Shown here one piece after another: positions 34,753 through 63,285 of a stretch of DNA of 64,000 nt. The translations under genes were made by a program, and so were the position numbers. This DNA comes from Gemmatimonadota bacterium (GTDB lineage Bacteria; Latescibacterota; UBA2968; UBA8231). The first letter of the stretch is position 1. Each line of letters starts with the position of its first letter. The stretch lies in contig JAYOYH010000007.1 of the NCBI GenBank assembly GCA_038153405.1, positions 32,001 to 96,000 of the forward strand, given 5' to 3'. The notes beneath the pieces were generated by a model. The model searched no databases. It was not told the origin of the DNA and saw only the letters and a list, made by a program, of their open reading frames with translations.

Positions 34753-34756
34753 GAAC

Positions 34757-37971: not shown

Positions 37972-39153
37972 TCAGTTGACCATCTGCATAAGGCGCTGCG
38001 TCATGGAGCCTTCCTGAGTCAGCGCGTAGACGATGACGTTGATCGCCATTTGCATCTGGCGCAGCTTATCCTGCCCTTCAACGGATTCCGTATACCCCAG
38101 GCCGAGGCTGAAATCGATTCCTACGAGGCGCCCCTTTATAAAGTGTCCCGTGGTATATTGCCAAGCATTTTGGTTCTTGTTGGAACTGGTTCCGCGCGTC
38201 GAAGTAGGCGCTCCCCCTTTGAAATCGAAATAGGAGCTGAAGACCGGGTGGTCGTCTGGGAGGCGCTCAGACCAGAAATCGCGGCCCTCTACCAAACCGC
38301 CGTACTTTTCGAGGCCCTCTTTAACAAAACCGATGCCGCCAAAAATAAATCCGCCGGACAGCAGATAGCGGGTCATCTGCTCCAATTCGCTCTCGTTGGG
38401 TGCACCTGCGGGCAGGATAATGGGTATTTCCAATAGGCGATCGTCGTCGTAGGTGATGCTGCCGATGAAATCGGCGCTGATGCCCGTATACTCGTTCAGG
38501 CCGTTAACTAAAAAGCGCAGATTATTGGTCGATCCGGTCGCCGTGCCCGAAGCCAGTGCGGCAGCAGATATTACGCGGGCAAAGTTGATGAACCCTTTAA
38601 TGGCCTGCGGATCGCCCTGTTCCTGCACGAGCATGGCGCGGTAGCGTCCGGTGTCCATGCTATTGACGTCGAGCATTTCAAGCGCCATATCGATTTTATT
38701 GTCCGGTTGGCGCGTGCCCGTAATGTCTACGGCGGTCATGGAAGGCTCCAGGGCAACCGTCCCCAAATCCACGGAGCGGGCCACCATCATCGATGGGCTT
38801 GCAGTCATGTTGAGTGCGGAAATGGTGCTAAAACTGGCCGTGGCCTTCACCTGGTCCATCCGCGCGCGCGTGGCTACGGTCTGGCGCTGGATCATTTGCC
38901 GTTTGGGTTTGGGGATCTTGCGCAGTTCAAGTGGCTTGGTCAGCCGCGGTTCGCGCTTTATGAACTTGGTCGTCAGCGGCCTTGGAGCCGTCTCAACCGT
39001 CTCTTCCAGGGGATCGATGATCGCCGCGCAAAGGTGGATGAGCACGGCGAGTATCAGCGATAATAGGAGATACTTATGGAGCTCTTTGAGAAGAATCTCA
39101 GGATGGAACGATCGGGCGGGTGAAACAAAGCGCCGCGCAATGCCTGAACTCAT
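37972..39153 (-). CDS. Single-TM protein with TonB-like N-terminus and C-terminal DUF4159-like domain
   Basis: TM SLILAVLIHL, Pro/Lys-rich linker; RYLLSGGFIF, LPDDHPVF, AINVIVYALT typical of DUF4159. Confidence 0.7.
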   Translation of the reverse strand: MSSGIARRFVSPARSFHPEILLKELHKYLLLSLILAVLIHLCAAIIDPLEETVETAPRPLTTKFIKREPRLTKPLELRKIPKPKRQMIQRQTVATRARMDQVKATASFSTISALNMTASPSMMVARSVDLGTVALEPSMTAVDITGTRQPDNKIDMALEMLDVNSMDTGRYRAMLVQEQGDPQAIKGFINFARVISAAALASGTATGSTNNLRFLVNGLNEYTGISADFIGSITYDDDRLLEIPIILPAGAPNESELEQMTRYLLSGGFIFGGIGFVKEGLEKYGGLVEGRDFWSERLPDDHPVFSSYFDFKGGAPTSTRGTSSNKNQNAWQYTTGHFIKGRLVGIDFSLGLGYTESVEGQDKLRQMQMAINVIVYALTQEGSMTQRLMQMVN

Positions 39154-40193
39154 TGTAAAACCCTTTTCTCGTAGTGAACGGGCCGCTGCTTTGAAAAGAC
39201 GAGATCGCCGATGCCCAGTGTCTGACCGCGTTTACGCACAGCGCGCTCCAACTTGTGGAGTCGCACCGTTGCCGAAGTGGGACCGACGGCTACTACTTTT
39301 ACTCGGCCCAGCTTCATCTGCCTGTTTTCTCGCTGGAACACATCGAGCTGCATCCCTTCAATAATGCCATGATTAGCCCCTCTGTCAATGCGATACTGAG
39401 GTCGGTTGTCTTCATCGGTCGCTAGGATGGTGGAGATCGTTCCCCACAGGGGCAGGTGTGCGTCAATTTGGGGCAGGAGATCGCGTATCATGCAATCGAT
39501 GAGATGGCCGCCGATGGCCGCATCGTTTTCGAGTGGGGATAGATACCAGCGGTCAGCGGAATTCAGCATGCGCAGGGAGGGTGGGTTTTTAAAGCGCTGA
39601 CGCATAATCGGTGCTACGTAATCGCGTATGACCTCGGGGTGGGTATAGCCCGGATATTTGTCGGGATTGTAAACAAATCGGTTGTCGTGCTGCAGCATGA
39701 TAGTGCTATCCTGTAAAGCGGACCAGACGATTTTATCGCGCTGGGTTTCTATCAGTCTAACTTCGATCGCCGCGCTCAGTGCGGGAAGAGCGGCTACTTC
39801 TCTGGGCTGAGAGTCGGCGGAACCGGAAAGCGTGGCTGCACTCGGCTCTGTGTAATACAGTGTGCGGTTGCGGTACAGCCTATCGATGCGCCGCAGCACG
39901 AAGTGTAAAACAAAGTCGATGCCTTCCTCCGCTTGAAATACGCTTCGTCCCCGCTGATCTAACTGTGCCGCTCGCGAGACCAGCCTGCAGCGGGGAAGGG
40001 TACCCAAGCCCCGCATTACGCCTTTTTGGGCCCGATAGCTTGCCGACTCGTATAGCGAATCGAGATGATCCCATCGCTTATCGGCGTCGGTCTCGTCGCT
40101 GAATGCGATGGCAACATTTAGGTGGGGTCTGGCCTGTAGGGCAGAGGGAGCAATTAGACCGAGGAGGATGCTCCACGCGCTCCACCGTATCAT
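39150..40193 (-). CDS. Exported protein with CsgG/FlgT-like middle domain and FlgT-C-like C-terminus
   Basis: Signal peptide from ATG 40193 (GAGG RBS); IEVRLIETQRDKIVWS; IDRGANHGIIEGMQLDV..GRVKVVAV....A. Confidence 0.55.
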   Translation of the reverse strand: MIRWSAWSILLGLIAPSALQARPHLNVAIAFSDETDADKRWDHLDSLYESASYRAQKGVMRGLGTLPRCRLVSRAAQLDQRGRSVFQAEEGIDFVLHFVLRRIDRLYRNRTLYYTEPSAATLSGSADSQPREVAALPALSAAIEVRLIETQRDKIVWSALQDSTIMLQHDNRFVYNPDKYPGYTHPEVIRDYVAPIMRQRFKNPPSLRMLNSADRWYLSPLENDAAIGGHLIDCMIRDLLPQIDAHLPLWGTISTILATDEDNRPQYRIDRGANHGIIEGMQLDVFQRENRQMKLGRVKVVAVGPTSATVRLHKLERAVRKRGQTLGIGDLVFSKQRPVHYEKRVLQ

Positions 40194-40380
40194 GAGCCTC
40201 TTTTCGTAGTCTATATTGAGCGCCAAATTGTGCGTAAAAATACATCTGCCTTAAGGCAATAACAATAATTATTTTTTTAGTTGTATGGGATTTTAAGATA
40301 TAGACAACTATAGCCAAACACAGGCAATGCAATGCGTTTATGAATTTGTTAAGAATTTTGAAAAAGGGGGCGATATGATC

Positions 40381-40409: not shown

Positions 40410-40509
40410 GGCCAATCAAGTAGACATTTTTTTACGCTCAATACCTAGGCTCTAATCGCGCAGCGTGCGCGGGGATGACCTAAGGTGTTTTTCTTCAAGG
40501 AGAAGAAGT

Positions 40510-41442
40510 ATGAGGAAGCTGAGCATAGCTGCAGCTGCAGTGGTCGGTTTGGCCGGTGCCGCTTTCGCCCAGGGCGAAAGGGTATTCGACCTGCCGAAGC
40601 TTACCCAGGCACCCGTTCTCGACGGTGTCATTGACGGCGATGAGTGGAACGGTTCGCTCGAACTCGACTGTTCCCCCTCGCGCGTTCAGGCCGACGGTGC
40701 CGAGTATGGCTGGCGCGACATCGAAGCCCAGCAGAGCGAAGTTAGCGTCAATCAGTTGGTGCAGTCGGATGGCGAAGATGCCGCGATTGCCCGCACCGAT
40801 GCCGACTTCAGCTCGCGCATTTGGCAGGCTTGGGATGACGACGGCCTGTGGGTCGTAACCGCCGCTGCCGACAACGTCCATGACGTTGAGGGTGGTGACC
40901 GCGGTTGGGCCTGGTGGGAGCGCGATAGCCTCTCCCTCTACGTCGATCTGCTCAACGAAAAAGAAGAGTCTGTGCTCAACGGTGAATACACCGCGCTGAA
41001 TATCATCAACTTCCAGGCTCGTCCGCTTGAGTCCAGCCCCTACACCGTTTCGTGGGCCCGCACGGTTGAAAATGCGCGTTCTGACGAAGACGGTAACGAT
41101 CCCGACCTCGTCGCTGGTTTCGACAACGGCTATCGCGACGCAGGCGACGAGTTTGGTGGCGAAGCAGACTACGTCCTTGAGATGTTTATTCCCTGGGAGA
41201 ACCTGCTCCGTTTTAACCTGCCCGCCACGCCGGTCGTCGGCACCGAGATGGGTTTCTCTTGGCTGCCGCCAGATCCGGATGGCGATGACGCCTACGGCGG
41301 TCAGTTGCAGTGCTGGGGATGGGCTGATGACCCCTCCAACTACTCCACTTGGATCTTCTCCGACATGCCGGCTGGTCCCGCTGGTGGCAGCACGGCCGTC
41401 GAGAGCGATTCATGGGGTCGCATCAAGACGACGTTCCAGTAA
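40510..41442 (+). CDS. Exported CBM9/DOMON-like protein with C-terminal TAVE..SWGRIK motif
   Basis: AAGGAG RBS; signal peptide AFA-Q; APVLDGVIDGDEW, AWDDDGLW, WERDSLSLYVD, YVLEMFIPW. Confidence 0.75.
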   Translation: MRKLSIAAAAVVGLAGAAFAQGERVFDLPKLTQAPVLDGVIDGDEWNGSLELDCSPSRVQADGAEYGWRDIEAQQSEVSVNQLVQSDGEDAAIARTDADFSSRIWQAWDDDGLWVVTAAADNVHDVEGGDRGWAWWERDSLSLYVDLLNEKEESVLNGEYTALNIINFQARPLESSPYTVSWARTVENARSDEDGNDPDLVAGFDNGYRDAGDEFGGEADYVLEMFIPWENLLRFNLPATPVVGTEMGFSWLPPDPDGDDAYGGQLQCWGWADDPSNYSTWIFSDMPAGPAGGSTAVESDSWGRIKTTFQ

Positions 41443-41482
41443 GACTGGGCTTTATAGCCTGATGTAAAGGTCGTATTGTTGA

Positions 41483-41542
41483 GTTTCATGCCGGGGAAGT
41501 TACTTCCTCGGCATGAAACCTATAGAGGCCTATGCCTTTTTT
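41483..41542 (+). other. 17-bp stem-loop followed by a short hairpin and U-tract
   Basis: GTTTCATGCCGGGGAAG-tta-CTTCCTCGGCATGAAAC (41483-41519), then AGGC-ctat-GCCT-TTTTT. Confidence 0.75.
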
Positions 41543-41607
41543 CACTACAATACAAATTTGGATACGTGCCCGTGCGGGTGCGTGTCGAGGATGACGGGGA
41601 GCCGACG

Positions 41608-44600
41608 GTGAAAACGCCCTTCAAGGTGAATTTAAGCCAAATAGCACGGTTCTTGGCGTTGGTTGGCTTATGGACGCTTGCCTCCCAGGCCGATGCGCAG
41701 CGCCATCCGGAATCGCAGGGCCCCTTGCCCTACTATCGCGATGAACCGGGGGTGTTGCCGGAGCCTGAATGGCTGCATCGCCCCGAGTTCATCCGTGGGC
41801 CGCGGGATCGCTATGAGCGCGGTGCCAATCGACTGTTTTTGGCCACAGGGGACGACGTTCCCTACCTCAACTACGCCGAAGAGCGCTTTATCCTCTCGCA
41901 GCGAGAGTTAATTCCTTGGTTCCAGCCCAAAGGCCGTTCTTGGAAATTTCGCAACACGCGCTGGGATCGCATGGGCAATTATATGGGATCCCCCTCCAGT
42001 ACATCCTCGCCGGCCAGCGGTTATTTGCGGCTGTTTTCTTGGGAGGAAACGCGCAGCGACGACGACGGTTTAGGGCGCAGTTTTATCGACCATCGCTCGC
42101 CTTCGCCGTGGGGGCCGCCTGCCGGATATAACGACGCCACTTTGCGCATAGGTCATTACAACTATAAAGATCTTCACTGGACGGCTACCGTCGGTCAGAG
42201 TGTGCGCAGTTATTTCACGCCGTTGACGCTAGCGCAAAGCCATCTTTCCGTGGCGCGCTTGGACTTCGATAATAAATTCGGCAAAGACCGCGCCACGATT
42301 CTGCTCAACAGGGGGCGGACGCGGCCCGGTGGCCTCTTTTCCGAATGGGCTTCCGTTGGCGGTGAAACCGAAGATGCCAACCCAGTCCTTATGTACGGTC
42401 TCCACTACAAGCATCGCTTCGGCCGCTACGCCCAATTTGGCACGACGCTCCTCAACCAGGTTTTGAACCAACCCGGATCCGGCAGCAGCAGTCCTTTGAA
42501 GGGCGATCTGCCCTACGATATGCTCGGTCCGCGCGTGATTCGCGTGTTCATCGCCGATGATTCACCCAGAGAGAGCCTGCACAATGCCAAGGTCTACGGC
42601 GTCGACATCGTCGTTCGCGGCACGCGCGGAGACCAGCCCGTGACCCTTAGCAACCGCCAGGGGGAATTCTACGACCCGGGTTTAGAGCCGGTAGTGGCAG
42701 GTGGGCGGTTGCTGAGCGGAGATGGGCGGGAGGCGGTCGGTCTTGAAACGGTCGTGTATGAATTTACTATTCCGGGTGATATTACGGCGACCTCGGCCCG
42801 CTTCTTCGCCGATGTCTCCAACGACTATCGAATTGGCATTCGGCAAATCTACGATTTTCCCGGCATTAGCCGCTCGGGCGAGCTCGATTTGGAAGAGCGG
42901 GTTTGGCCCGACGACTTCGTCACCACCGAATCCGTCACGCGCCGCCCCTTTAAGTGGGATATCCAGGAGGGCGAGGAACCCTATTATACGGTGGCCCGTT
43001 CGGAGGGCGTGGGGCAAAATGGTTCAAACCGTCGCGTCGTGCAGTTCGATCACGGCATTCCCACGGGCCAGAACCTATTTTCGTTCGACGCACAGGCCAA
43101 TCTCATCGGTCTGAAGTTCAGCGGCGAAATCGTCCGCAACAATCAGAATTACATCTATCCCGTAGGCCGCAATGACGGGCGGCGGACCAGCCACAAGGCG
43201 TTGGCCTATTGGCTCAACGTCAAAAAGGATATTGGGATTGCCAAGCGCTTGGGCGCGCAGCTGGGCGCCGAGTTTTTTCGCTTGGATCCCAGCTATAGCG
43301 GCGGCTATGACAGCCAGCGCGGCGGCATGGCCTTCCACTTAGATCTGCAGGAATCACCGGGTGGGCGCGTGAAGTCGGATACGCAGGAGTACGGACTGGT
43401 CGAAGACAACGACGACGACGATCAGTGGCCCGATGATTTTGTCGAAGATACAGCCTCGCCGGGACGCCTTTCTTACCCCGGTTGGCCCAACGCATCCGTA
43501 TATCCGGGCTTGGACGAAAATCTCGACAATATTCCCGACGTCGACCGCAACGAAAACTTTGTGCCCGATTGGAACGAGGCATTTCTCACCTACGATGTCG
43601 ATCCGCCAGAGTTTGTCTACGGAATAGACTTTAACAACAACGGCATGCCGGATTTTCGCGAGAACGACGACTTGCCCGACTATCCTTATCGCCGGGATCA
43701 AAAGGGACGCCACTTCTTCCTATTGCTTGACCGCTTGGGCGGCTGGGGCAAATCCATTTCCGCTGGCTACTATAAGTCGAACGAGATTGCTGGCGGGACT
43801 GAGGCCAAAAGCATGTACCTGCGCTATGCTCTCGAAAAGCAGCGAGATGGGGTGGGGAGTTTACAAATCAACATCGATACCAAGATCGTAGAGGACAATA
43901 TTCAAGACGATAGCTACGTGTATATCGTCCCGCCCAACGACGACGATGTCATTCCCTGGCTCAACAAGCCGGACCATCATCCCGACGTTGCCGGTCGCTA
44001 CCGTCCTGCAACGCCCGATCCGCTGCTGATGCGCGACAGCTGGGTCAATACCGCTTATATCGACGCCGATTACCTGAAGATTGCGAATATGCGCATTCAC
44101 AATGCGCTGCTGTGGACGCGCAACAGCATGTCCGAGATTCCCCTTGAAGGAGGCGGAGATGGCGAGTTGTTGCAGGCCGAAGACGTCCGCTCGCGCCTCA
44201 TCGTGATCAACAAAGTCGATCGAACCTGGTTGCTTAAGTCCATCGCGATTTCGACCAAGTTCAAACACCGCTTAATCTACGAAAATGTCGACAGCGAAGA
44301 AGATCCGCGCATATCAGCTTCCGATTTTATTCCCATCGTGATGGGGGAGTATGCGCTGACGCCCAAGACCCGATTGGTGCTGGGCGCACAGGGCATGCCT
44401 TTTTTGCCCATGAAGCACTGGGATAGAGCCAATAAAGACGGCACTTATTCTCAGACCGACTACGCCTTCATGTACAAGATGCGCTCGGAGTATTTCGGTT
44501 TTGAAAACGACTTCTTCTTCGGCTATTTGCTTACGGATAGGCAGCACACTCGATTGCGCGACCGCGACTTCAATCGCGGCACGTTTTTCGTCGAAGTCAT

Positions 44601-44613
44601 AACGCCATTCTAA
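41608..44613 (+). CDS. Large putative outer-membrane beta-barrel protein A (~1000 aa), uncharacterised
   Basis: GTG after GGGGAG; signal peptide ADA-Q; amphipathic beta-strand runs; ends FFVEVITPF; Asp-rich insert. Confidence 0.6.
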   Translation: MKTPFKVNLSQIARFLALVGLWTLASQADAQRHPESQGPLPYYRDEPGVLPEPEWLHRPEFIRGPRDRYERGANRLFLATGDDVPYLNYAEERFILSQRELIPWFQPKGRSWKFRNTRWDRMGNYMGSPSSTSSPASGYLRLFSWEETRSDDDGLGRSFIDHRSPSPWGPPAGYNDATLRIGHYNYKDLHWTATVGQSVRSYFTPLTLAQSHLSVARLDFDNKFGKDRATILLNRGRTRPGGLFSEWASVGGETEDANPVLMYGLHYKHRFGRYAQFGTTLLNQVLNQPGSGSSSPLKGDLPYDMLGPRVIRVFIADDSPRESLHNAKVYGVDIVVRGTRGDQPVTLSNRQGEFYDPGLEPVVAGGRLLSGDGREAVGLETVVYEFTIPGDITATSARFFADVSNDYRIGIRQIYDFPGISRSGELDLEERVWPDDFVTTESVTRRPFKWDIQEGEEPYYTVARSEGVGQNGSNRRVVQFDHGIPTGQNLFSFDAQANLIGLKFSGEIVRNNQNYIYPVGRNDGRRTSHKALAYWLNVKKDIGIAKRLGAQLGAEFFRLDPSYSGGYDSQRGGMAFHLDLQESPGGRVKSDTQEYGLVEDNDDDDQWPDDFVEDTASPGRLSYPGWPNASVYPGLDENLDNIPDVDRNENFVPDWNEAFLTYDVDPPEFVYGIDFNNNGMPDFRENDDLPDYPYRRDQKGRHFFLLLDRLGGWGKSISAGYYKSNEIAGGTEAKSMYLRYALEKQRDGVGSLQINIDTKIVEDNIQDDSYVYIVPPNDDDVIPWLNKPDHHPDVAGRYRPATPDPLLMRDSWVNTAYIDADYLKIANMRIHNALLWTRNSMSEIPLEGGGDGELLQAEDVRSRLIVINKVDRTWLLKSIAISTKFKHRLIYENVDSEEDPRISASDFIPIVMGEYALTPKTRLVLGAQGMPFLPMKHWDRANKDGTYSQTDYAFMYKMRSEYFGFENDFFFGYLLTDRQHTRLRDRDFNRGTFFVEVITPF

Positions 44614-44618
44614 TCACG

Positions 44619-45380
44619 GTGAATGCGATGCCTCTGTTGAACTATACCGGCATACTCGCGGCTCTGTTGATCGCGGGATGCGCGCTTCCTCCGCACTCTG
44701 TCCTTAAGTATCAGGTGCAGGCTTTACCCATTATCCCCGCGGGTGAATCGGTCTTTTACGAAGATCCGGTAGACAGCACCATTGTTTGGAGCAAAGAGGG
44801 CCTACAAATCAAAGTCCGGTTTTACAACGACGACATGCTCGATGCCCGTTTTGATCCGAGAGTGAGCCCCTATACGCTGACCGGATGGAGCGATCCAATC
44901 TTGGGGTACACGCCGCCGCTGTGGACGACGTTTGAAATCACGGTGATCAACCGCACGCGCGAACGCGTAGAACTCGACCCGACACAGGCCATACTGCGAC
45001 TGGACAATGGCAACCATCTCTATTGTCGTCAAGGCGTTGGGGTTTGGAAGACGCTGCCGCACTACTACGACTACAGCTATCTGAAGTGGAGTGGCCGCCA
45101 GGGCAACGTCGAGTTTTATGCCAATACGGACCGTAACGCCATTTGGAACCGCACGGAATTTCAGCGCGAAAAGCCCGTGCGCAAAGGGCGCAAATACACG
45201 GGTATGCTAACCTTTCCTCGGCTGCCCAATGACGTCGAGTCGTTCACCCTTGAAATCAACGATTTCATCTTGGCCTATGACAGTGCCGAAGCCGGTTTTG
45301 GCAATCCGATAGAGTTTACTGATATACACTTTGACTTTACAGTGAAGCAGGGAGTGGTCACCGTGGAGAGGAGTCGCTAA
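44619..45380 (+). CDS. Lipoprotein, paralog of 56517-57311
   Basis: IAGC lipobox; shared motifs with the 56517 gene. Confidence 0.75.
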   Translation: MNAMPLLNYTGILAALLIAGCALPPHSVLKYQVQALPIIPAGESVFYEDPVDSTIVWSKEGLQIKVRFYNDDMLDARFDPRVSPYTLTGWSDPILGYTPPLWTTFEITVINRTRERVELDPTQAILRLDNGNHLYCRQGVGVWKTLPHYYDYSYLKWSGRQGNVEFYANTDRNAIWNRTEFQREKPVRKGRKYTGMLTFPRLPNDVESFTLEINDFILAYDSAEAGFGNPIEFTDIHFDFTVKQGVVTVERSR

Positions 45381-46049
45381 ATGAGAGCGCCTGCTCTATA
45401 CATGCGCGCGTTTGCCGTGTTTGCTGCGTTGGCTGCCGTTGTTGGCTGTGGAAATCTGAAATACCAGGCGCTCAAGGGGACCAGCGTGGAGAATCCACCG
45501 CAGGCTCCGGTGAAGGTCTACGTAAAGGAGTTCCCCGTTACGAGCAAGGCCAATGTAATCGATCCCAATGCCGCGCTGGGGGACGGCGGTTACGGTGGAG
45601 GCGGGCGATCGATCAATGCGCTGGCGGAAGTGGGCAATGCCATCATGGTCATATCGAGGCCCTCGCGCATCGAAGACCTAACCCGTTCCCTACTGCGCGA
45701 ACTGCGTCCGCGGCAGCTGCGCATCTTTTCCGAGTACGATCGGGTAACAGACTTGAAGGGCGTTCGCAATATTGACAACCCATTTGTCCTCGTGCCGCCG
45801 GAAGACGAGTCGGCGCAGCTCGAAATTAGTGGCACTGTCTACTTGTTGAGCGAACGCGTCGAGCAGCGTTTTTCGCAAAACAGCAGCAGCGCGCGCGTGG
45901 AGCTTGTAGTGCGTGATGTTGCCAGCGGGGAAGAGGTTCGCTTGCCGCCGACGGCGGCCGGTATAAGCATGACCTATAACTCGAAAGAATTGGAAGAGGC
46001 GATCGCCATTTTCATCTCCACGCTGCTAACCCAAAAGACGCTCTTTTGA
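45381..46049 (+). CDS. Lipoprotein with probable CsgG/TolB-N-like fold
   Basis: VVGC lipobox; VYVKEFP, LEISGTV, VELVVRDVASGE. Confidence 0.6.
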   Translation: MRAPALYMRAFAVFAALAAVVGCGNLKYQALKGTSVENPPQAPVKVYVKEFPVTSKANVIDPNAALGDGGYGGGGRSINALAEVGNAIMVISRPSRIEDLTRSLLRELRPRQLRIFSEYDRVTDLKGVRNIDNPFVLVPPEDESAQLEISGTVYLLSERVEQRFSQNSSSARVELVVRDVASGEEVRLPPTAAGISMTYNSKELEEAIAIFISTLLTQKTLF

Positions 46050-46050
46050 G

Positions 46051-47697
46051 GTGGTGAGGAAGATTGCCTTGGTATCAATGGTAACCATGCTGACGGCCTT
46101 TCCCAGCGCAGTGGATGCTGCAAGCCAAACGGTGACTTGGCGTTGGGATGGCGAGGATGCGAGTGTCTTGCAGTTGCTGCAGACAAGCGTTGACGTCGGC
46201 CGCGGAGTTGTGTTGGACGTGCTCTCGCCAGACAAAAATATAGCTTTGGGAGCGATCGCGCGGAACGATTTTGGTCTGCGTGAACCGCTGACGGACGGGG
46301 AGGTCTCTCTGGTTGCCAGCGAGTGGATATCCAATACGCCGAACGTATTCGGTCGATATTTCACCGTTGACCTTGGTGTAAACCGTGCGATAACGCGGGT
46401 GCGGGTGCGGCCCGGTCAAACCGCGATTAACCAACCGGAATACTACATCCGCGGATACAGAGTGGAAGCGGCCTTGGAAAATGATCCGGATATTTGGCGT
46501 CTGCTGGCCGAAGAGCGCACGAACTTCAATTTGCTAATTGACACCGGTGCGGACTCTACGTGGGCCGTTGTGGCCGATGGTCAACTCGCTTCTCGTTTGG
46601 GCCGCTACGTGCGCTTTACCATTACCCGGCAGGACCGCAGCAATTGGGTGGCAATTGGCGATATCGAGGTGTTCGGCGAGGGCGTTGAGGCTGAGGGTAC
46701 GGCTCAATACACCTGGTTGCCGCAAGCACCGGTGAATGTGGGGCGCATACGGTGGCAGACCGAAGACCGTGCAGAGGGATTTAGTCTGTCTGCCAAGGGC
46801 GGTGATGAAACGTGGTCTACCGTCAACCCGCTGGAGTCCGATCGGTCTTTTGCAGGAGCTGAACCGATCGACTCGCTGCAATTTATGGCCTCGCTGTCGA
46901 CTCACGATCCGTTTGCCACGCCCGTTTGGCGCGGGGTAGAGGTCGAATACGACACGCGCTTAGTCGCCGACGGGGCGTTGGGGGCGGTTGAGCCCAACGC
47001 GGTTGCCCGCGGGGAGTGGGCCGAGATTAACTACAGCATTGAACTGGCACTGCGAGCGGATAATTACGGTGTGGATAGGGTGCTATTGGACGGAACGGCG
47101 CTGGTCGTTGATGGGCTGCGCGTGGATGGCGTCTTGCTGAGCAATAATGAGTATAGCTACAGCGCCAACGACGAATTGGGTCAGACTGAGATACAGATAA
47201 ACCGCGCGGTCTTGCAGACGGCTCTGCTCCAAATAGAAGGCCGGGGCCTTTTCCTCAACGAGGTAACGGAGATAGGATTTCGCGTTGGCAATGCGCAGCA
47301 GGAAGAAGCCGACGGCTATATTAACTGGCAAAACGGCCGAGAGAGCCCGGTGGCTAGTTGGCGCGTGCGCGCTCAGGGAACACCCGGCGAATTGCTCGGC
47401 GAGATCGAGCTTTCCGAGCGGCCATTCTCGCCCTACGAAAGCAAAGAGCTGACGTTCAAGTTTATCGTCTCCAATTTGAACAACCCAACGGATATCGTCC
47501 TTTCGCTCTATCGTTTGAACGGCGTGCGGGTCCGGCAAATGCAGCAAAACGGCGGTGCGCGGCCCTATGAATTCCGCTGGGATGGAAGGGATGAAGGGGA
47601 CCGATTGGTGGACCCCGGTCTCTACTTGTACGAGGTAAGAGTAGCCGGTGGCGGCGAGAGGAGCGGGCGGCGAGGAACATGCGTTGTCGCCTATTAG
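46051..47697 (+). CDS. Exported protein with discoidin-like domain and C-terminal FlgD-Ig/T9SS-CTD-like domain
   Basis: Signal peptide; FTVDLG..RYVRF..IGDIEVFG; PFSP..LYRLNGVRVR..WDGRD..VDPGLYLY..GTCVVAY. Confidence 0.75.
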   Translation: MVRKIALVSMVTMLTAFPSAVDAASQTVTWRWDGEDASVLQLLQTSVDVGRGVVLDVLSPDKNIALGAIARNDFGLREPLTDGEVSLVASEWISNTPNVFGRYFTVDLGVNRAITRVRVRPGQTAINQPEYYIRGYRVEAALENDPDIWRLLAEERTNFNLLIDTGADSTWAVVADGQLASRLGRYVRFTITRQDRSNWVAIGDIEVFGEGVEAEGTAQYTWLPQAPVNVGRIRWQTEDRAEGFSLSAKGGDETWSTVNPLESDRSFAGAEPIDSLQFMASLSTHDPFATPVWRGVEVEYDTRLVADGALGAVEPNAVARGEWAEINYSIELALRADNYGVDRVLLDGTALVVDGLRVDGVLLSNNEYSYSANDELGQTEIQINRAVLQTALLQIEGRGLFLNEVTEIGFRVGNAQQEEADGYINWQNGRESPVASWRVRAQGTPGELLGEIELSERPFSPYESKELTFKFIVSNLNNPTDIVLSLYRLNGVRVRQMQQNGGARPYEFRWDGRDEGDRLVDPGLYLYEVRVAGGGERSGRRGTCVVAY

Positions 47698-48547
47698 AAG
47701 CTGGTTGTTGTTCATTAATTGTTTGGGACTCAGTGTCGTAGGGCCAGTCGGCGCCGCGTTTGAAACGGGGGCAGGGGCGTATTCCACTGCGCTGGGCAAC
47801 GCTTTTTCGGCCGGGGTAGAATCGGCCGAAGGAGTATGGTTTAATCCTGCGACCTCTGCTAGGCTGCGTTTGCCGCGCGTCGCCATAACGCAGGGTGCGC
47901 TCTACTCAGGGCTGAGCGATCGCCCAAGCATCAGCGCTGCAGCCGGTGTTTGGCCCCGGCGCTGGGGCACGCTGCAGGCGGGTTTTTCCGGCCTGTGGGC
48001 AGATGATTGGGCTGAAAGCCAGTGGCTATTGGGCTACGGTCGCGTGCTGCACCCTCGGTTGTCGGTTGGAGCGCAGCTGCGGACGGCCAGTTGGAGTTCG
48101 GGGCGCTATGGGCAGCGCCGCTGGCTGGCCACCGTCGGTGCCCTATACGAAGCGGGGTGGGTCAGTTCGCGTTCCTACGTTCGCTTTTCGGCTGTCGTGG
48201 CCAATATAGGCCGGCCCGATTCCAAGTCGGCCAGGGCGTCGGGTATGCCCGCGCGTTCGCATACGTTGGGCATGCAGGTTCGAAATGCAACGCGTGCCCT
48301 CTTGCTCGACTTGGTCGAACAGGGCGGCGATTGGCAGGCGCGCTGCGGGTATGAATCGGTGCTGCGCGCCGAATTAAAGCTGCGGCTTGGAGCGACGGTA
48401 TTGCGGGGTGATACCGTAAATAAGACCGGGCATATAGGACTGGGGTACGAGTGGAAAAACGTGCATTTTGACTATGCGTTTTCGCGTTCGTACGACCTAA
48501 ACGACTTCGGGGCCGACCACCGTTTTGGCATTGGCTATGCTTGGTGA
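47684..48547 (+). CDS. PorV/PorQ/PorP-like outer-membrane beta-barrel
   Basis: TTG after GAGGA; GAYSTALGNAFSA..GVWFNPA and DYAF..HRFGIGYAW. Confidence 0.72.
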   Translation: MSPIRSWLLFINCLGLSVVGPVGAAFETGAGAYSTALGNAFSAGVESAEGVWFNPATSARLRLPRVAITQGALYSGLSDRPSISAAAGVWPRRWGTLQAGFSGLWADDWAESQWLLGYGRVLHPRLSVGAQLRTASWSSGRYGQRRWLATVGALYEAGWVSSRSYVRFSAVVANIGRPDSKSARASGMPARSHTLGMQVRNATRALLLDLVEQGGDWQARCGYESVLRAELKLRLGATVLRGDTVNKTGHIGLGYEWKNVHFDYAFSRSYDLNDFGADHRFGIGYAW

Positions 48548-48646
48548 GGTTTCGGACGCAACGAAAAGGCAAAAGGATTCGCTGAGCGGAGGCGAATGTC
48601 CATGAAAATAGAGCGGTTTTTATACTTCTCGGGTGAGGGAGCAATT

Positions 48647-51577
48647 ATGGAGCACGCGAATCGCGGTTATCGCTTGAGGTTACACGTCCTCGGGGTGCTT
48701 TGCGCGCTGGTCGCTCTGGGCGATGTCGGGTTTGCGCAGACGCACCTGCGCGATCGCGACTTTCTCAATCTGGGCTCGACAGAGGGCTATCTCAACTACG
48801 GCCGCACGGAATACGAGCCCTATCCCGAACTCATTAGTGCGCGCAATCGCTACGACCGCCTGGGCAATTTTCAGATGCGCGGCCACAGGACGTTCACCTG
48901 GGAACTCCAGCGTCCTGGGTTTAGCGAAATCAGCACGCGCTCTGAGCAGTATCTGGGTTGGTTTAACAACCTCATCATTATGAATGATACTTACCGGGGT
49001 TGGGATTTCGGGGTGACGGTTGGTGAGGATATCCGCACTAAACTCACCGATTTGACCTTCCACGATCCGCGCTACTACGGTATTCGCATGGACGGCGCGT
49101 CGGCCGATAACCGCTTTACGCTACTGCTTAGCCAGGGCGGCACGCAGGCCACGCAGTCGCCCAATCCCAAGTTTTCCACTTTTCAGGGCGGCAAAGAGCG
49201 TTCGTCTGTGCTGATGTTTGGTGGACACTGGGAGACGCAGTTGGGCAATATCCTCAAACTGGGCGCTACTTATTTCAACCACCATATGTTGGATACGTTC
49301 AATGACAAGGGCGCCTTTGTCCGCGGCGATACACCCTATAGCATGCTGGCGCCCGCCTTTATTACGATCATCGTCGAGGACGATTCGCCCGATGCCAATC
49401 AGGTCGGTGCCGTCGTATACGATGTGGGTATCGAAATTCAGGCCGAGTCGCTGGGGCAGCAAATCCGCCTTAGCAGCTTGGAAGGCGATGCCAACTACGA
49501 TCCCACTCTGAGGCCGACGGTAGAAGGCGGCCTTCTCAACGCAGACGGCGGTCGTCACGTCAGCGGCGACGGCCAGCGCGTATTCTACACTTTCCGGATG
49601 CCCGAGTTCGCCCTGCCCGACGCGGCCGACTATGCCAACGATCCGTCCGCGGCGTTAAACGGACTCACGGTCAAATCGGTTCGCTTTCTGGCCGATGTAG
49701 CCGGCGATTACAGAATATTGGTTAAGCAGCAGCACCTCTTCTTCAATGAATCGGCCTACGAGAAGAACCTCGAAAAAGAGTATGTGCCCGGCGATAATAG
49801 CTACGTCAATCCATTCACCGGTTTGAAAGGAGCGGATGCCCTGCTGAGTCCGCAAGAAGCCTACGAAGCGGGGGAAGAAATATTCAAGCAGTGGCCGGTG
49901 CCGCCCAACCAGTCGATTAGCCAACTCAACCCCTTTATGCAGTTCAAATGGGATCTGGAAAACCCAGAAGAGGTGGCCTATACCGTCGTCCGCGCCGAGT
50001 CCAACTCAACCGATCTGAGCAACCGCCGCATCGTGAGCTTTGACTACGGCATTCCCACCGGGCAAGCGCTATTCGGTCTCAATAGCCACCTGACGTTGGG
50101 TGGATTTGATGTCAAGGCCGAGTTCGTTACAAATCCGCAGTATTTTATCTACCCGATTGGGAATAATGCGGGCAAGCGATTTCAGAAGAAGACGTTGGCC
50201 TACTTCATCAATGCGGTCAAGCGCTACGAGTCGCTGTCCTTTGGCGTTGAACTCTTCCAACTCGACCCCGACTACGGCGGCAATTACGACAGCATTCGCG
50301 GTGGCGTGCCCTTTTTTACTGATGTGGCGCAAACCGGTTCGCAAATGCAGGAAATATTCGTCATGACCGACAACGACGACAACGATCAGTGGCCCGACGA
50401 ACTCATCGTCGAACTGCCTAGCGCAGACCGCCAAGATTCGGGCGTTTTTCCCGGCCTCGACGAAAACCAGGATCTGGTGCCCGATACCGATCAGAACCTC
50501 AACGGCATCGCCGACTGGACCGAGCCCATTATTTTTTACGATGCCGATCCACCCGAATTCGTCTACGGCCTCGACTTCAACAACAACGGCGTAGTCGATT
50601 TTCGCGAAAACGATGGGTTGCCCGATTACCCCTATCGCCGTGATCGCCGCGGGTTCCACCTCTTCACGCGCAAGGACGGCCTCGGCTTGTTGGGTAAGAC
50701 CCTTTCGCTGGGCTACTACGACACCAAGGAAGTGGCTGGTCGCGGCAGGGCCAAGGCCATCTACGCGCGCTACGAGTACAGCACGAACTCACCGTATTTG
50801 GGCCGTATTCGCATCAACGAGGATATCAAACGCGTAGAAGACAGTATTCGCGATGACGTCTATATCTGGCGCGATCGCAGCGTGCAGCGCATCGACTCGC
50901 CCTATCCGCACATCACGCCGCGTCAGATAGAGGAGCGCGACCTCAACTCGCAGTTGCTGCCGCCCGACAGGGACCCGTTGCTGATGCGCAACAGCCTAGT
51001 CAATACCCTCTTTATCGAGGCACGCACCAGCCCCATCATCGATTTTAATTTGATCAACAACATTCAATGGCTGCGCAACAGCCAGTCAGCTGACGAGTTT
51101 GACGACGGCGTAGTACAAGAAGAGGACGTCCGTTCGCTCATCACCATGGTCAATAAAGTCGACTATACGATCCGCGCTGGAAATGTTACGGTAAAGCCCA
51201 TGTTCAAGCATTTGCTCCTGCGCGAACACTCGCAAAAGCTCGATCGCGAACAGGGTCAAGGCAGCACGCGCTCGTTTTCCATTTTTACGCCGATTTTGCG
51301 CACCCGTCTCGATCTGACCAACAAATCCTACCTGCAGCTGGGATTTCAGGGGTTGCCGTTCTGGCGCTACACCAAGACCGACCGCGTCGACAGCAGCCAG
51401 AATTTCAAGGAGTGGACTACCGTATTCATGTTGACCAATCGATCGGATTACTATGGTTTTGCGCTGTCGACTCAAATTGGCTGGGAGACTACCCGCCGCG
51501 AGTATGACGACGAGATCAATTCGGCGCTCAACCGCAACAGCTCTACGCTGTTTTTCGATGTGCTGGCCGGCTTTTAA
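48647..51577 (+). CDS. Large putative outer-membrane beta-barrel protein B (~976 aa), paralog of A
   Basis: ATG after GAGGGAG; signal peptide GFA-Q; colinear motifs with protein A; ends LFFDVLAGF. Confidence 0.6.
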   Translation: MEHANRGYRLRLHVLGVLCALVALGDVGFAQTHLRDRDFLNLGSTEGYLNYGRTEYEPYPELISARNRYDRLGNFQMRGHRTFTWELQRPGFSEISTRSEQYLGWFNNLIIMNDTYRGWDFGVTVGEDIRTKLTDLTFHDPRYYGIRMDGASADNRFTLLLSQGGTQATQSPNPKFSTFQGGKERSSVLMFGGHWETQLGNILKLGATYFNHHMLDTFNDKGAFVRGDTPYSMLAPAFITIIVEDDSPDANQVGAVVYDVGIEIQAESLGQQIRLSSLEGDANYDPTLRPTVEGGLLNADGGRHVSGDGQRVFYTFRMPEFALPDAADYANDPSAALNGLTVKSVRFLADVAGDYRILVKQQHLFFNESAYEKNLEKEYVPGDNSYVNPFTGLKGADALLSPQEAYEAGEEIFKQWPVPPNQSISQLNPFMQFKWDLENPEEVAYTVVRAESNSTDLSNRRIVSFDYGIPTGQALFGLNSHLTLGGFDVKAEFVTNPQYFIYPIGNNAGKRFQKKTLAYFINAVKRYESLSFGVELFQLDPDYGGNYDSIRGGVPFFTDVAQTGSQMQEIFVMTDNDDNDQWPDELIVELPSADRQDSGVFPGLDENQDLVPDTDQNLNGIADWTEPIIFYDADPPEFVYGLDFNNNGVVDFRENDGLPDYPYRRDRRGFHLFTRKDGLGLLGKTLSLGYYDTKEVAGRGRAKAIYARYEYSTNSPYLGRIRINEDIKRVEDSIRDDVYIWRDRSVQRIDSPYPHITPRQIEERDLNSQLLPPDRDPLLMRNSLVNTLFIEARTSPIIDFNLINNIQWLRNSQSADEFDDGVVQEEDVRSLITMVNKVDYTIRAGNVTVKPMFKHLLLREHSQKLDREQGQGSTRSFSIFTPILRTRLDLTNKSYLQLGFQGLPFWRYTKTDRVDSSQNFKEWTTVFMLTNRSDYYGFALSTQIGWETTRREYDDEINSALNRNSSTLFFDVLAGF

Positions 51578-51621: not shown

Positions 51622-54600
51622 ATGCTTCTTGTGAATCTTCTCGTGATTGCCATAATGGGCGGAGCTGTGGGGTTGACGTCGCGCTATTTTTCCCCGCAAG
51701 AGCTGCAAGATCGCTTTGGCTTTGGGCAAAAGCTCTATGCCTTGGGCGACTACGAGAAGGCCTTGCCTCATTTCGAAGCCGTTATGGCGACGAAAAACAA
51801 CATCACGATCAACGTCGAAGATGTCACTGTTACTCTCGACGAGTTTATCTTGCCCGTGCGAGTTGCTGCCACCTATCAGCTGGGCAATACGCACAACAAG
51901 CTGGGGCAGGACAAACTGCGCCGCTCGGGGTTCTTGCGCGCAGAGGGCAAAGAGGATCAAGCCGATCAGCGCTACCAAGAGGCATTGGAGGAATTCAAGC
52001 GCAGCTTGGAGTATTTTGGCGAAATAAGCGCTGGCGAAGAAATCGATGAGCGCACGCGGGTTATGGCGCAATTCCAGACGCTTGAAACCAACTACAAGCT
52101 CAAGCAATTTGATAGCGTGATTGAAGAGGGGGAACGCCTGCTCGAGCAGTTTCCCAACAGCGTGTATGAGACGGCCGCTTACTATAATATCGGCTGGTCG
52201 TATTACGAATTGGGTCAATACGGCAACGCTATCGACAACTTTAAAGAAGTGATAACGCTGTCGCCGCGCGGTTCGCACGCCGACCGCTCATACTTTCAGA
52301 TCGCCGAATCGTACGGCAATTTGGAAGAGTACGACCAATCGCTGAACTACCTGGACCGGCTCATACGGCGCTATGACTTTTCCGCGATGTCGGAAAAGGA
52401 ACTGATAGAAATGGCCAGCCTCAAGCTCAAAGGCCTCGTCGAGGAGACCTCGCGTGAATTGGTCGCCAAAGCACAGCTCAAGCGCGGCGATATTTTTTCC
52501 CGGCGCGGCGATGTAGATATGGCGCTGGCGGCCTATGCCAATGTGCCGGAAAAGTATCCGATGGAGACGGCACTAGTCGAGAATGCCTACATTCGCTCAG
52601 CCGAACTGATCAACGAAACGCGCGGCACCGACGCGGCGCTTATCGCCTACCAGAGCGCCATTGAAAACGTTGACGACAAGCGCTTTCAGGCCAGAACTCA
52701 GCTGACGATCGCGCGCTTGCTGTTTGAAAAAGATGCCTTTGAACGGGCGGCCGAGCAGTACCGCATCTTCCTCAGCGCCTACGGAGACGTGGCGGCGCGC
52801 ATTGGCTTTGCCGAAGACAAGGTGCTCTTCCGCATCAGCCAGTGTCACCAAGCGCTGATTCGCACGCACTTGGCCAACGGCAATGCCGATGGGGCAGACG
52901 AAGCAACGGCTGAGGCGTTGAGGATCTACGACGAGCTGCTAGTCAAACACGGCGATAGCCCGCTGTTGCCCGACGTCTACTTCTCGCGCGGTTACGCCCG
53001 CCAGCTAATAAAAGACGCAGGAGCAGCCGACGACTTCACGCATATGGTTAGTACCTACCCCGATCACCCAGCCGCCCCCAATGCGCTTCTGCAGCTTGCG
53101 CGCATCGACTTTGAGGCGGGTAAGTTCCAGAGGGCACAGGCGACCTATGAGCGATTGCTGACGGACTTTCCCGAATCTGACCCGATCAATCCCGCGCGTA
53201 TGGAACTGGGTCTGTGCTTCAAGAATATGAACGACCTGACCCGCGCAATCGCCTCCTTTGAATCGATTGATTCGCAGTGGAGCCAGTGGGGCAAAGTGCA
53301 GGCTGAGTTGGCCGACCTCTACGTGCGTTCCGGCGATCGCTCGGGTGCCAAGCGCGTGCTCGAGCGCGCTATGGAGCAGGTTGACAGCGATGAACTGCGC
53401 GGACAGCTCGTTTACGTAAAATCGCGCGTCCACTTCACCGAGGCCGAGTATCGCGAGGCCATTGAAGGCTTTTCGCAAGCGCTGGAACTGCCTATTCGCG
53501 AAGATATTTACAACGGTTCGCTTCTCTCGCGGGGCAGTGCATACTACGAACTGGCCAAAACGCTCGATGCCAAGGGCGATACGGCGCGCGCGCGCGGCGA
53601 ATACGAGTTGTCTTTGATTGATATGAAAGCGCTCCTTGAGCGCGACCCGCCAGCCAACATAAAGGACAGCGCATTTCGTACTTTGGGTGCGGGAATGATC
53701 CGTCTGCAGCGAGAGGACGAGGCCGTTCGCTACTACAAAGAGCTCATCGCATCCAGCGATGATCAGCAGCAGCGCGCGACGTTTCAAATGCTGCTGATGG
53801 AGCTCTATTTTGATCAGCAGGCCTTCGAACAGTCTGAAATCTTTGCCCGAGAGCTCCTCGAAATGGATTTCGAGGACGACAACAACGCCGGCTATTACCG
53901 CAAAGAACGCGCCTATTCAATAATTGGCAACGCGCTTGTTCAGCGCAAAGATTATGCGGAAGCCAGTAAGATTTTCGCCGAAGGGCTAGCCCAGTATCCA
54001 CAGTCGGGTGAGAGCGCCAACCTGGCCTTTTCCAAGGCGTTTTCTGATTTCAATGGCGGCGATTACGAACTGGCCGCTAAGGGGTTTGCTTTTTATGTCA
54101 ATTCGTTTTCGAACGATCGCAATGCCGTACACGGCCAGTACTACCTGGCCCATAGCTATCAAATGCTCACCGACTTTGATAGCGCGGCGACGTCATTCAG
54201 TGAGCTAATGGATCGCTATCCTCGCTCGAACTATACCGAAGAGGCGATGTTCTTAGTCGGGGAAAATTACTACAACAAGCGCGATTTCGCCGCCGCTTCG
54301 CAGGCCTATTCTACGCTGCTAGAGCGCTTTCCGAAGGGAAGGTATGGCGACGCGGCTCTGTACGCCAAGGCCTGGTGCGAATTCGAGCAAGAAGATATGG
54401 AAGCGGGAGTGGCTTCAATGGCCCAGCTCGTAAGCAACTTTCCCCAAAGCGAGTTTGCCGCCAAAGCTCAGTTTACGGTTGGCGATTACCACTACAACAA
54501 CCGCAACTATAAAGAGGCGCTCAAAGCCTACTCTGTCTTGATCGAGTCCTATGCCTCTACGCCGGAAAAACAGCGCGCAGAAGCTCTCGTCGAAGAACTG

Positions 54601-54894
54601 AGCGAAATCGAGGCGAGTTTGGATTACGCTCAGGTTATGGGCAAATTCGAGTCAAAAGACTATGAAAATGCCATTAGGGGTTTTAAGGAAATTATCGAGA
54701 AATATCCCGATACCTATACGCAGCTGGCTGCCTATTGCAATCTGGGGCTCACCTACGAGATCCTCAGGCAGTGGCCTCAAGCTGTCGAGAATTACGATCA
54801 AACCCTGGCCAGAGGGGAGGGCGATATCGAAAATTCGGACGTCGTCAATTTTGCTCGTCTGCACCGGGATTGGATCGTCGAAAACAGGCTATAA
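51622..54894 (+). CDS. 1090-aa TPR protein with BamD/CpoB-type repeats
   Basis: N-terminal hydrophobic segment; many L...(Y/F)P.S.....A repeats. Confidence 0.85.
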   Translation: MLLVNLLVIAIMGGAVGLTSRYFSPQELQDRFGFGQKLYALGDYEKALPHFEAVMATKNNITINVEDVTVTLDEFILPVRVAATYQLGNTHNKLGQDKLRRSGFLRAEGKEDQADQRYQEALEEFKRSLEYFGEISAGEEIDERTRVMAQFQTLETNYKLKQFDSVIEEGERLLEQFPNSVYETAAYYNIGWSYYELGQYGNAIDNFKEVITLSPRGSHADRSYFQIAESYGNLEEYDQSLNYLDRLIRRYDFSAMSEKELIEMASLKLKGLVEETSRELVAKAQLKRGDIFSRRGDVDMALAAYANVPEKYPMETALVENAYIRSAELINETRGTDAALIAYQSAIENVDDKRFQARTQLTIARLLFEKDAFERAAEQYRIFLSAYGDVAARIGFAEDKVLFRISQCHQALIRTHLANGNADGADEATAEALRIYDELLVKHGDSPLLPDVYFSRGYARQLIKDAGAADDFTHMVSTYPDHPAAPNALLQLARIDFEAGKFQRAQATYERLLTDFPESDPINPARMELGLCFKNMNDLTRAIASFESIDSQWSQWGKVQAELADLYVRSGDRSGAKRVLERAMEQVDSDELRGQLVYVKSRVHFTEAEYREAIEGFSQALELPIREDIYNGSLLSRGSAYYELAKTLDAKGDTARARGEYELSLIDMKALLERDPPANIKDSAFRTLGAGMIRLQREDEAVRYYKELIASSDDQQQRATFQMLLMELYFDQQAFEQSEIFARELLEMDFEDDNNAGYYRKERAYSIIGNALVQRKDYAEASKIFAEGLAQYPQSGESANLAFSKAFSDFNGGDYELAAKGFAFYVNSFSNDRNAVHGQYYLAHSYQMLTDFDSAATSFSELMDRYPRSNYTEEAMFLVGENYYNKRDFAAASQAYSTLLERFPKGRYGDAALYAKAWCEFEQEDMEAGVASMAQLVSNFPQSEFAAKAQFTVGDYHYNNRNYKEALKAYSVLIESYASTPEKQRAEALVEELSEIEASLDYAQVMGKFESKDYENAIRGFKEIIEKYPDTYTQLAAYCNLGLTYEILRQWPQAVENYDQTLARGEGDIENSDVVNFARLHRDWIVENRL

Positions 54895-54930: not shown

Positions 54931-55599
54931 ATGTCGGAAAATTTTATAGTCGGCCAGTTTCTCAAGGGCGGTCCAATGATGTGGCCGCTATTGATCTGTT
55001 CTCTCATTTCGATGGTCGTTGCCATCGACCGCCTGTTGAGCTATATGCGCCTGCCGTCTGAGGAAGAGGCGGAAGCACATCTTTCGGAAGTGGAATCGGT
55101 GTTGGAAAAGGGCGGCGAAGCGGCCGCCGTAGAGCACTTCAAGGCGAATAAAGGCGTGCTCAATTACGTTTTTGCCGCGTTGTTAAAACGCTATGACTCG
55201 CTCGTTTTAGAGAATCGGACGGATGTGGAGGATATGCGGCAGGAACTCATCACGGTTACGGAAGAGGCGGGCATCGACTATCTCGGCCGTCTGCTCAATG
55301 CCTTAGGGACGATTGGGGTGCTCGCACCGCTCATGGGGCTGCTGGGAACGATCGTGGGAATGATCCGCGCCTTTGACGCCATTGCCCAGGCCGGTGCCGG
55401 CGATCCGGCCGCCGTGGCCAGCGGTATTTCCGAAGCGCTTATCACCACGGCTTCGGGTCTGATCGTGGCCATTCCGACCATCGTCTTTCACCGTTACCTA
55501 TCTGCCCGGGCCGACAAGGCGTATAAGGAGATTGAACTCTACTGCCATGCCTTCGCCAACACGCTTATCGTTCGCTTTAGCAATCAGCGCGAGAGCTAG
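54931..55599 (+). CDS. exbB: MotA/TolQ/ExbB proton channel protein
   Basis: GGPMMWPL, APLMGLLGTIVGMI, GISEALITTASGL; GGAGG RBS. Confidence 0.93.
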   Translation: MSENFIVGQFLKGGPMMWPLLICSLISMVVAIDRLLSYMRLPSEEEAEAHLSEVESVLEKGGEAAAVEHFKANKGVLNYVFAALLKRYDSLVLENRTDVEDMRQELITVTEEAGIDYLGRLLNALGTIGVLAPLMGLLGTIVGMIRAFDAIAQAGAGDPAAVASGISEALITTASGLIVAIPTIVFHRYLSARADKAYKEIELYCHAFANTLIVRFSNQRES

Positions 55600-63228: not shown

Positions 63229-63285
63229 TGCGCCGTAGCTGTTGGGGCTATGGTCCCGAATGGGAAGGTTTCGAGGGAGTTGGCT

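Follow-up and report, generated by a model that had tools for sequence, protein, structure and literature searches.

The window analysed here is a 64,000-nucleotide stretch of contig JAYOYH010000007.1, from a genome of the bacterial phylum Latescibacterota. It contains an operon encoding two proteins of about 1000 residues, which we call A and B, together with the genes of an ExbB-ExbD motor. These two proteins, the predicted barrel family to which they belong and the operon around them are the subject of this report.

41608..44613, plus strand: barrel paralog A (open frame 41476-44613)
48596..51577, plus strand: barrel paralog B (mature part from 48737), modelled with AlphaFold and used in fold searches

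A and B are colinear paralogs, as the original prediction had claimed. BLASTP aligned them over 1005 columns at 35% identity (482 bits, E 6e-158), whereas the top score of 200 shuffles of B against A was 28.9 bits, and all eight motif pairs named as shared are present and stand in the same order in both proteins. The start of A at 41608 is an in-frame GTG, 44 codons into the open frame, and its orthologs begin just ahead of the same mature end, QRHPES. Both N-termini, read by eye, look like the signal peptides that had been assigned to them. Both proteins also end in the Phe that had been pointed out, but this residue is not family-wide (42 of 150 aligned members end in Phe); the conserved C-terminal feature of the family is instead the last strand, F-x-x-V-x-x-G. 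Four genes separate A from B, and the two are not adjacent. Counting both, the genome has 23 paralogs, of which 22 are 877-1054 residues long and one is cut by a contig end. Open frames of 1489-1850 residues were considered as fused double barrels and rejected, each having one domain behind spurious upstream sequence.

Neither protein matched a family in Pfam or NCBIfam at E<=0.1, in keeping with the earlier description of an unrecognised family of about 1000 residues, and by family there is therefore no TonB plug domain. PDB sequence searches with B and with the family profile returned nothing meaningful, so that no confident match to a known family appeared in Pfam, NCBIfam or PDB. The ESM Atlas search returned only unnamed clusters at 0.98; the nearest named family, DUF6029 at 0.88, is a lead only. 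No description of the barrel family was found among the top-ranked papers of the open literature searched.

An AlphaFold prediction for mature B, made from an 84-row alignment, reached a predicted local distance difference test score (pLDDT) of 86.6 and a predicted TM-score (pTM) of 0.85, with the five models within 2.5 points. It contains 23 long strands between residues 79 and 945; in 22 of these (residues 89-945) hydrophobic and polar faces alternate across the family (0.39-0.89), and the strand at 79-86 is weak. The turns at one end of the strands are predicted to be short and the loops at the opposite end long, and the model ends on its last strand. The predicted structure therefore has what marks the class of outer-membrane beta-barrels, namely antiparallel amphipathic strands, turn and loop sidedness and a terminal strand. 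We infer a wall of 22 strands, or of 24 if N-terminal strands join it. The large barrel with inserted soluble domains that had been proposed is supported by the model, by strand amphipathy and by fold searches, in which all listed Foldseek and wide-search rows were membrane barrels and no soluble, non-barrel fold appeared. No structure exceeded a TM-score of 0.24 of the query, and the best Z, about 12, covered only about half the wall.

Two inserts of B leave the predicted barrel from the long-loop side, at residues 187-438 and 510-636.

42469..43065, plus strand: inserted beta-sandwich domain of A, predicted to be Ig-like and loop-borne (model pLDDT 89.5)
50264..50644, plus strand: acidic insert of B, predicted lumen plug (mature residues 510-636)

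The first insert, modelled from A, is predicted to fold alone as a beta-sandwich. This Ig-like domain has a weak best Z of 5.3, to pilin and adhesin domains, and no Foldseek match at E<=0.001; none of its matches stood out, which is not evidence of a new fold, and an ESM Atlas search with the insert gave nothing usable. The second insert is 24% Asp and Glu and holds 14 of the 28 invariant columns of a 33-row alignment, and its four DxDxD-type motifs suggest calcium binding. The top couplings between residues far apart in sequence are N616-K698 (z 13.0), Y601-D809 (12.5), P605-L826 (7.3) and D604-V805 (6.9), and the wall residues K698, D809, V805 and L826, which are coupled to insert residues 601-616, all lie on the non-lipid face; a weaker coupled pair, L612-I693, is at odds with a lumen placement. 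When the model (575-944) is superposed on BtuB (chain 8-594; Z 10.8), the plug region of BtuB falls over the acidic insert. Several TonB-dependent transporters (TBDTs) align their plug to the N-terminus of the B model, and a short N-terminal segment is predicted to lie near the lumen. Together, the covariation and the BtuB superposition place the acidic insert in the lumen, where it would line the pore, and the prediction is therefore a plugged barrel. The earlier statement that there is no TonB plug stands at the level of family, in that PF07715 is absent, but a barrel without any plug is not what covariation and superposition suggest.

The operon begins with a CBM9-like gene and continues with A, two lipoproteins, a discoidin protein with a sorting domain, a PorV-like barrel, B, a tetratricopeptide repeat (TPR) protein, ExbB, two copies of ExbD, a lipoprotein and a peptidyl-prolyl isomerase (PPIase). 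Apart from A and B, the genes at the locus are:

37972..39153, minus strand: TonB-shaped DUF4159 protein (PF13709), candidate force transducer, divergent from the operon
39150..40226, minus strand: secreted-looking protein outside known families, encoded upstream of the DUF4159 gene and on its strand
40465..41442, plus strand: CBM9-like secreted protein with a TAVE..SWGRIK tail, first operon gene (PF06452, E 2.7e-7)
44619..45380, plus strand: lipoprotein of family 1, lipobox IAGC (G-C invariant in 8 of 8 paralogs)
45381..46049, plus strand: lipoprotein of family 2, single copy, VVGC, with conserved operon position
46051..47697, plus strand: discoidin (F5/8) protein with a Tyr-ending, type-B-like T9SS (type IX secretion system) sorting domain (F5/8 and FlgD_ig matches)
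47648..48547, plus strand: PorV/PorQ-like small barrel, directly 3' of the sorting-domain gene (NF033709)
51622..54894, plus strand: TPR protein of 1090 residues with an N-terminal hydrophobic segment (domain scans)
54931..55599, plus strand: proton channel of the ExbB/TolQ/MotA family (PF01618, E 6.8e-30)
55615..56061, plus strand: first ExbD/TolR protein (PF02472, E 3.5e-26)
56064..56513, plus strand: second ExbD/TolR protein (PF02472, E 1.1e-25)
56517..57311, plus strand: second family-1 lipoprotein, 34% identical to that at 44619-45380
57440..59080, plus strand: parvulin (SurA/PrsA-type) PPIase lipoprotein (Rotamase domains)

The NF033709 match of the small barrel (E 4.8e-8, 32.9 bits) is below the cut-off of 90. 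The protein at 39150..40226 had no Pfam, NCBIfam or PDB sequence match, and a PDB sequence search with the lipoprotein profile gave nothing meaningful. Promoter and terminator scans stayed near or at shuffle level. Contigs from RNA libraries of three studies span parts of A, B and the majority of the genes, mostly at 99% identity or above; they carry no information on level, strand or co-transcription, and their uncovered parts prove nothing. In all four RNA libraries the deepest contigs were those of the CBM9-like, SWG.IK-tailed gene at 40465-41442, which is only a hint of abundance since such contigs cannot rank genes.

The DUF4159 protein has one N-terminal membrane helix carrying a His, a linker rich in Pro, Lys and Arg, and the DUF4159 head. 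The His is kept in 22 of 28 DUF4159 relatives of 350-520 residues, after 3 of 31 rows had been excluded for length. The gene order of the operon recurs in six further loci (L021-L024, L027 and L033) as far as each reaches, and ExbB-ExbD follow B and the TPR gene in all six of the B-orthologous loci with A upstream that extend that far. The core operon with the TPR gene recurs in three other genomes (G093, G007 and G010), with ExbB-ExbD seen within the stretch in G007 and G010. Across 71 loci we counted family-1 lipoproteins in 49, DUF4159 in 27, ExbB in 17, sorting-domain genes in 57 and TPR genes in 46, the last two being upper bounds because type A domains and other TPRs are picked up by those profiles as well. 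A DUF4159 gene adjoins the barrel gene in 5 of 7 G007 loci. Only 5.3% of this genome's genes lie within 10 kb of a barrel gene, as compared with 8/8 family-1 lipoproteins, 8/13 PPIases, 8/11 CBM9-like, 10/23 ASPIC and 4/21 DUF6785 genes. A separate ExbB-ExbD-ExbD operon lies on contig C52, and its last gene looks like what we take to be an ordinary TonB; the barrel-linked motors therefore look dedicated. A third motor module (L015, G000:C85:8437-14676), with a PorV-like fragment, TPR, ExbB, ExbD and DUF4159, sits at the end of a contig that has no barrel gene.

A profile search found 446 representatives of the barrel family at E<=1e-30 among 1.84 billion, and the named homologs are mostly Ca. 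Latescibacterota (genome matches: best 80 of 634). Of 161 Latescibacterota genomes, 101 have the family, including all 74 other genomes of the host's own family (f1) and none of the 56 in families f2-f4. Two records titled with other phyla had 17 and 28 barrel matches, like typical family members, and those titles are therefore treated as unreliable; a third had one match on a 2.5-kb contig, and none of 80 further genomes sampled from its phylum matched. In a midpoint-rooted FastTree tree (759 hidden Markov model columns, 76 rows, with the barrel fragment on contig C60 left out), A and B each have an ortholog clade of their own (support 1.0 for both), and the two clades are sisters (0.96). In three-gene barrel runs at other loci the members likewise group mainly according to position, and the majority of this genome's expanded copies make up a subfamily apart. 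Three sequences (P0231, P0256 and P0261) form a divergent subfamily, with about 26% identity to the rest and 39-44% among themselves, whose members are possibly from other phyla. The genome G093 has 66 barrel matches, fragments included; several of these are split or interrupted or carry a frameshift, in stretches with many transposases, which reads as rapid family turnover. The original prediction had included neither the motor nor the sorting-domain partners nor this expansion.

The plug, the motor, the transducer and an expansion beside catabolic genes lead us to favour gated import. On this reading, to which we give a roughly even chance, A and B would be plugged 22-24-stranded outer-membrane barrels that act as gated importers, opened by a proton-driven ExbB-ExbD motor of their own to which the DUF4159 protein links them; uptake itself is suggested by gene context, and the route is likely separate from known TBDTs. 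The size and plug of the barrel fit a gated transporter, the partner proteins carry carbohydrate-binding-type folds, and the expansion is transporter-like, with 23 copies here and the many matches of G093, often as single genes. Among the flanks of the G093 copies, which are mostly single genes, sulfatases, glycosidases, deacetylases or a lyase account for 10 of 41 open reading frames (ORFs) versus 2 of 91 in the control (p 1.4e-4), and DUF6785 membrane proteins for 4 of 41 versus 0 of 91; the 41 were picked from 68 flanking ORFs by nearness before annotation, and the control comprised 14 regions. Through the DUF4159 head, and with the TPR protein serving as a scaffold, the motor would pull the periplasmic side of the barrel, and this pull would shift the plug. 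Surface-exported discoidin and CBM9-like proteins may capture the substrate, as SusD/E do, the substrate presumably being an oligosaccharide or a similar organic polymer fragment. A and B belong to the core operon, which bears the motor, and the numerous copies that lack one could be substrate-specific variants that share those motors. A and B are kept as stable orthologs within a single operon, as the subunits of a two-part complex would be, so that the heterodimer which had been proposed as an alternative to two substrate-specific channels is plausible, whereas single-gene loci (one on contig C19 of this genome, others in G093 and G010) indicate that a barrel can be encoded alone.

Several observations weigh against gated import. 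The strand count was derived without coordinates, barrel closure is not visible in the covariation, and the covariation depth was an effective sequence number (Neff) of about 307 for 946 positions. Of the three DUF4159 proteins linked to motors in this genome, one has no His, and only 2 of its 8 DUF4159-like proteins have a barrel gene within 10 kb. The G093 test concerns one genome, with hand-picked control coordinates and a category set after the flanks had been seen, and a shared location in accessory DNA could cause the enrichment; the loci of the present genome are rich in sorting-domain, leucine-rich repeat (LRR), TPR and ASPIC proteins and have few degrading enzymes. Matches to the TBDT plug averaged 17.5 in 58 f1 genomes and 20.4 in 53 f2-f4 genomes, which have no barrels. 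Replacement of TBDTs by the barrels is unsupported, as TBDTs are not depleted where barrels occur.

Compared with TBDT and SusCD systems, the present one is similar in its predicted barrel of about 22 strands with an occupied lumen, its ExbB-ExbD motor, its transducer, which combines one membrane helix carrying a His with a Pro-rich linker, its paralog expansion and, in G093, its neighbouring glycan genes. It differs in that A, B and the family members scanned have no PF07715 plug match; no PF00593 match was found either, the family profile gave a probability of 0.1% against one TBDT of this genome, and the TM-score to TBDT structures was at most 0.21. The main plug of the predicted barrels is an internal acidic insert, an Ig-like domain sits in a loop, and only about half of the wall superposes. 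The head of the transducer is DUF4159 and not TonB_C, a giant TPR protein is present, and the barrel partners carry sorting domains where SusCD has SusD lipoproteins. The barrels may still have a very diverged TBDT origin. Chaperone-usher systems offer a further comparison, since the barrels have a curvature similar to that of PapC and FimD (root-mean-square deviation (rmsd) 4.4-5.0 over 213-260 residues). Ushers carry their plug mid-sequence, as the barrels here are predicted to do. There is, however, no sequence or Pfam match to ushers, the barrels end on their last strand with no C-terminal domains, and no chaperone-usher pilin genes were noticed nearby. The barrels would be Ton-type in their working, yet by sequence they lie outside the TBDT, SprA, PorP/PorV, SlpA/OmpM and usher families. 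No paper joining DUF4159 and TonB, and none joining Latescibacter, SprA and type IX secretion, was found in the literature searched, and ExbD and TonB are not mentioned in the available passages of PMC12635249.

A different role is suggested by the sorting domains. The barrels could be carriers, anchors or a private export or display pore for their own surface proteins, namely those with the Tyr-ending sorting domain and possibly those with the SWG.IK tail; they would then do the job of PorP/SprF in Bacteroidota, with ExbBD supplying energy as GldLM does there. This is the main rival to gated import; we consider it rather unlikely, although several associations speak for it. Of the sorting-domain proteins with an aromatic ending, 34 of 52 are encoded within 10 kb of a barrel gene, versus 2 of the 42 with other endings (p 4e-10), and a sorting-domain cargo gene lies directly upstream of 15 of 23 barrel genes, A and B not among them. 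In Bacteroidota, a type B cargo gene is commonly found directly upstream of its shuttle gene, according to the passages available of PMC12618676, and the CHU_C-like cargo genes upstream of barrel genes, together with the SprA in this genome, recall that arrangement. The Tyr-ending domain occurs in 100 of 161 genomes and the barrels in 101, with equal family tallies except for G007, whereas SprA occurs in 159. In this genome, which is 93% complete, no GldM, GldN or PorP was found, PorP having no match over the cut-off; control searches also stayed below cut-off.

Other features fit the carrier role less well. Copy numbers uncouple: the 66 barrel matches of G093 stand against 2 Tyr-class domains, most f10 genomes have 1, and G007 has 16 barrel matches and no Tyr-class domain at threshold, although a diverged copy is still in its core operon. 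Dispersed barrel copies mostly lack a cargo gene, and the cargo gene of the present operon is followed by its own PorV-like barrel. The Tyr-class domain model was built from barrel-linked genes, and genomes within a family are not independent, so that the co-distribution of the sorting domain, like that of the SWG.IK tail, is a pattern and not a test. The SWG.IK pattern averaged 11.7 versus 1.7 for its control in 100 genomes with barrels and 2.7 versus 1.8 in the 61 without, which include G026 with its single weak barrel match. Its count follows first-look barrel candidates within f1 (rho 0.65), but f10 has barrels without enrichment. The paralogs of the Tyr-ending class match CHU_C, and the three scanned fall below the TIGR04131 cut-off, unlike type B cargo. 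The barrels are about three times longer than PorP/SprF, predicted to be plugged and unrelated in sequence, with copy numbers that are not 1:1; A and B match neither PF11751 nor NF033709 of the shuttles (about 300-400 residues), nor TIGR04189 or PF14349 of the SprA/Sov translocon (about 2100-2400 residues), and the barrel profile aligned with this genome's SprA over 15 columns at a probability of 8.6%. A complex prediction that paired the paralog L006:2690-5245 with the C-terminal 104 residues of the cargo protein encoded upstream scored 0.00; the controls were unfolded, and the result was counted neither way. Replacement of SprA by the barrels is rejected, as SprA is present here and throughout nearly all genomes counted above, and the barrels therefore appear as an add-on to the T9SS and not its core.

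A passive role is improbable, in which the barrels would be oligomeric porins or structural proteins of the envelope, remote kin of SlpA (Deinococcus) and OmpM (Veillonella), with the motor serving another part of the operon. SlpA tops the Foldseek list and OmpM1 the wide fold search, the position-specific clades of two- and three-gene runs would suit hetero-oligomers, and 5 of 12 family members, six of them preselected for that annotation, match SlpA_C (PF21620) over about 80 of its 656 positions, one above the cut-off. The SlpA superpositions are poor globally, however (TM-score 0.17-0.23, rmsd 10-24 A), their Z values tie with those of unrelated porins, and A and B themselves have no SlpA_C match. 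The barrels also have inserted domains, a motor linkage and, in the model, no N-terminal stalk, and a porin needs neither a conserved lumen plug nor a fixed link to TPR and ExbBD genes. Least probable of all is an Agl-Glt-like machine for surface motility or envelope remodelling, in which the barrels would couple the motor to surface adhesins, a parallel whose TPR and two-ExbD labels are in part our assumption. The loop domain is weakly like pilin and adhesin folds. The ExbB-like protein, two ExbD-like proteins, TonB-like transducer and TPR set in one cluster parallel the AglRQS-GltDEGC core complex of Myxococcus (passages of PMC3169522), but those passages, which themselves consider the core alone unlikely to drive motility, describe nothing corresponding to plugged large barrels, a DUF4159 head or T9SS-type cargo; only generic ExbB, ExbD and TPR matches and no Glt homology were seen, though no search was aimed at Glt, and three motor modules here with tens of dispersed single barrels beside G093 catabolic genes fit poorly.

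Further features of the genome were noted along the way. SprA is a genuine protein of 2132 residues (G000:C29:30661-37059), and 7 PorV-family and 55 type A domain matches exceed their cut-offs. The TAVE..[ST]WG.IK C-terminal tail ends 15 ORFs genome-wide, all small secreted proteins, 8 of them within 10 kb of a barrel gene; no description of the tail was found in the literature searched. LRR lipoprotein genes lie 3' of barrel genes in three loci (L002, L003 and L004), and 4 of 5 such genes are near a barrel gene. In the window, two FG-GAP/ASPIC proteins and a HEAT-repeat lipoprotein are encoded at 33025-37875. The region 59200-64000 encodes a 666-residue protein without a Pfam family, a DUF6785/DUF6784 protein and, in its first part only, a long gene, a relative of which on contig C60 is a peptidase M28-FtsX fusion; this run of membrane proteins is a candidate inner-membrane partner. 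DUF6785 has 21 genes in the genome, and several lie beside barrel loci here, in G093 and in G007.

To return to gated import, passages of PMC4454575 describe the phylum as known for polysaccharide use, with uptake predicted through non-specific porins and with ordinary TBDTs also predicted. A more far-reaching form of the importer reading, which we regard as possible but doubtful, is that the barrels are a second class of proton-powered outer-membrane transporter that does not descend from TBDTs, with a calcium-clamped internal plug, a DUF4159-headed transducer, hetero-oligomers in core operons and interchangeable surface modules with their own sorting signals (the Tyr-ending domain and the SWG.IK tail). 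At its boldest, this reading has the pore export or display these modules as well, and so be a new secretion and display system beside the T9SS.

In textbooks, energised uptake across the outer membrane is the work of TBDTs. If gated import is correct, a separate barrel family working with ExbBD via a different transducer would be a second energised uptake route, and this would offer roles for DUF4159 and for the two sorting-like tails. Few envelope families are as expanded as the barrels in this phylum, which is widespread and uncultured.

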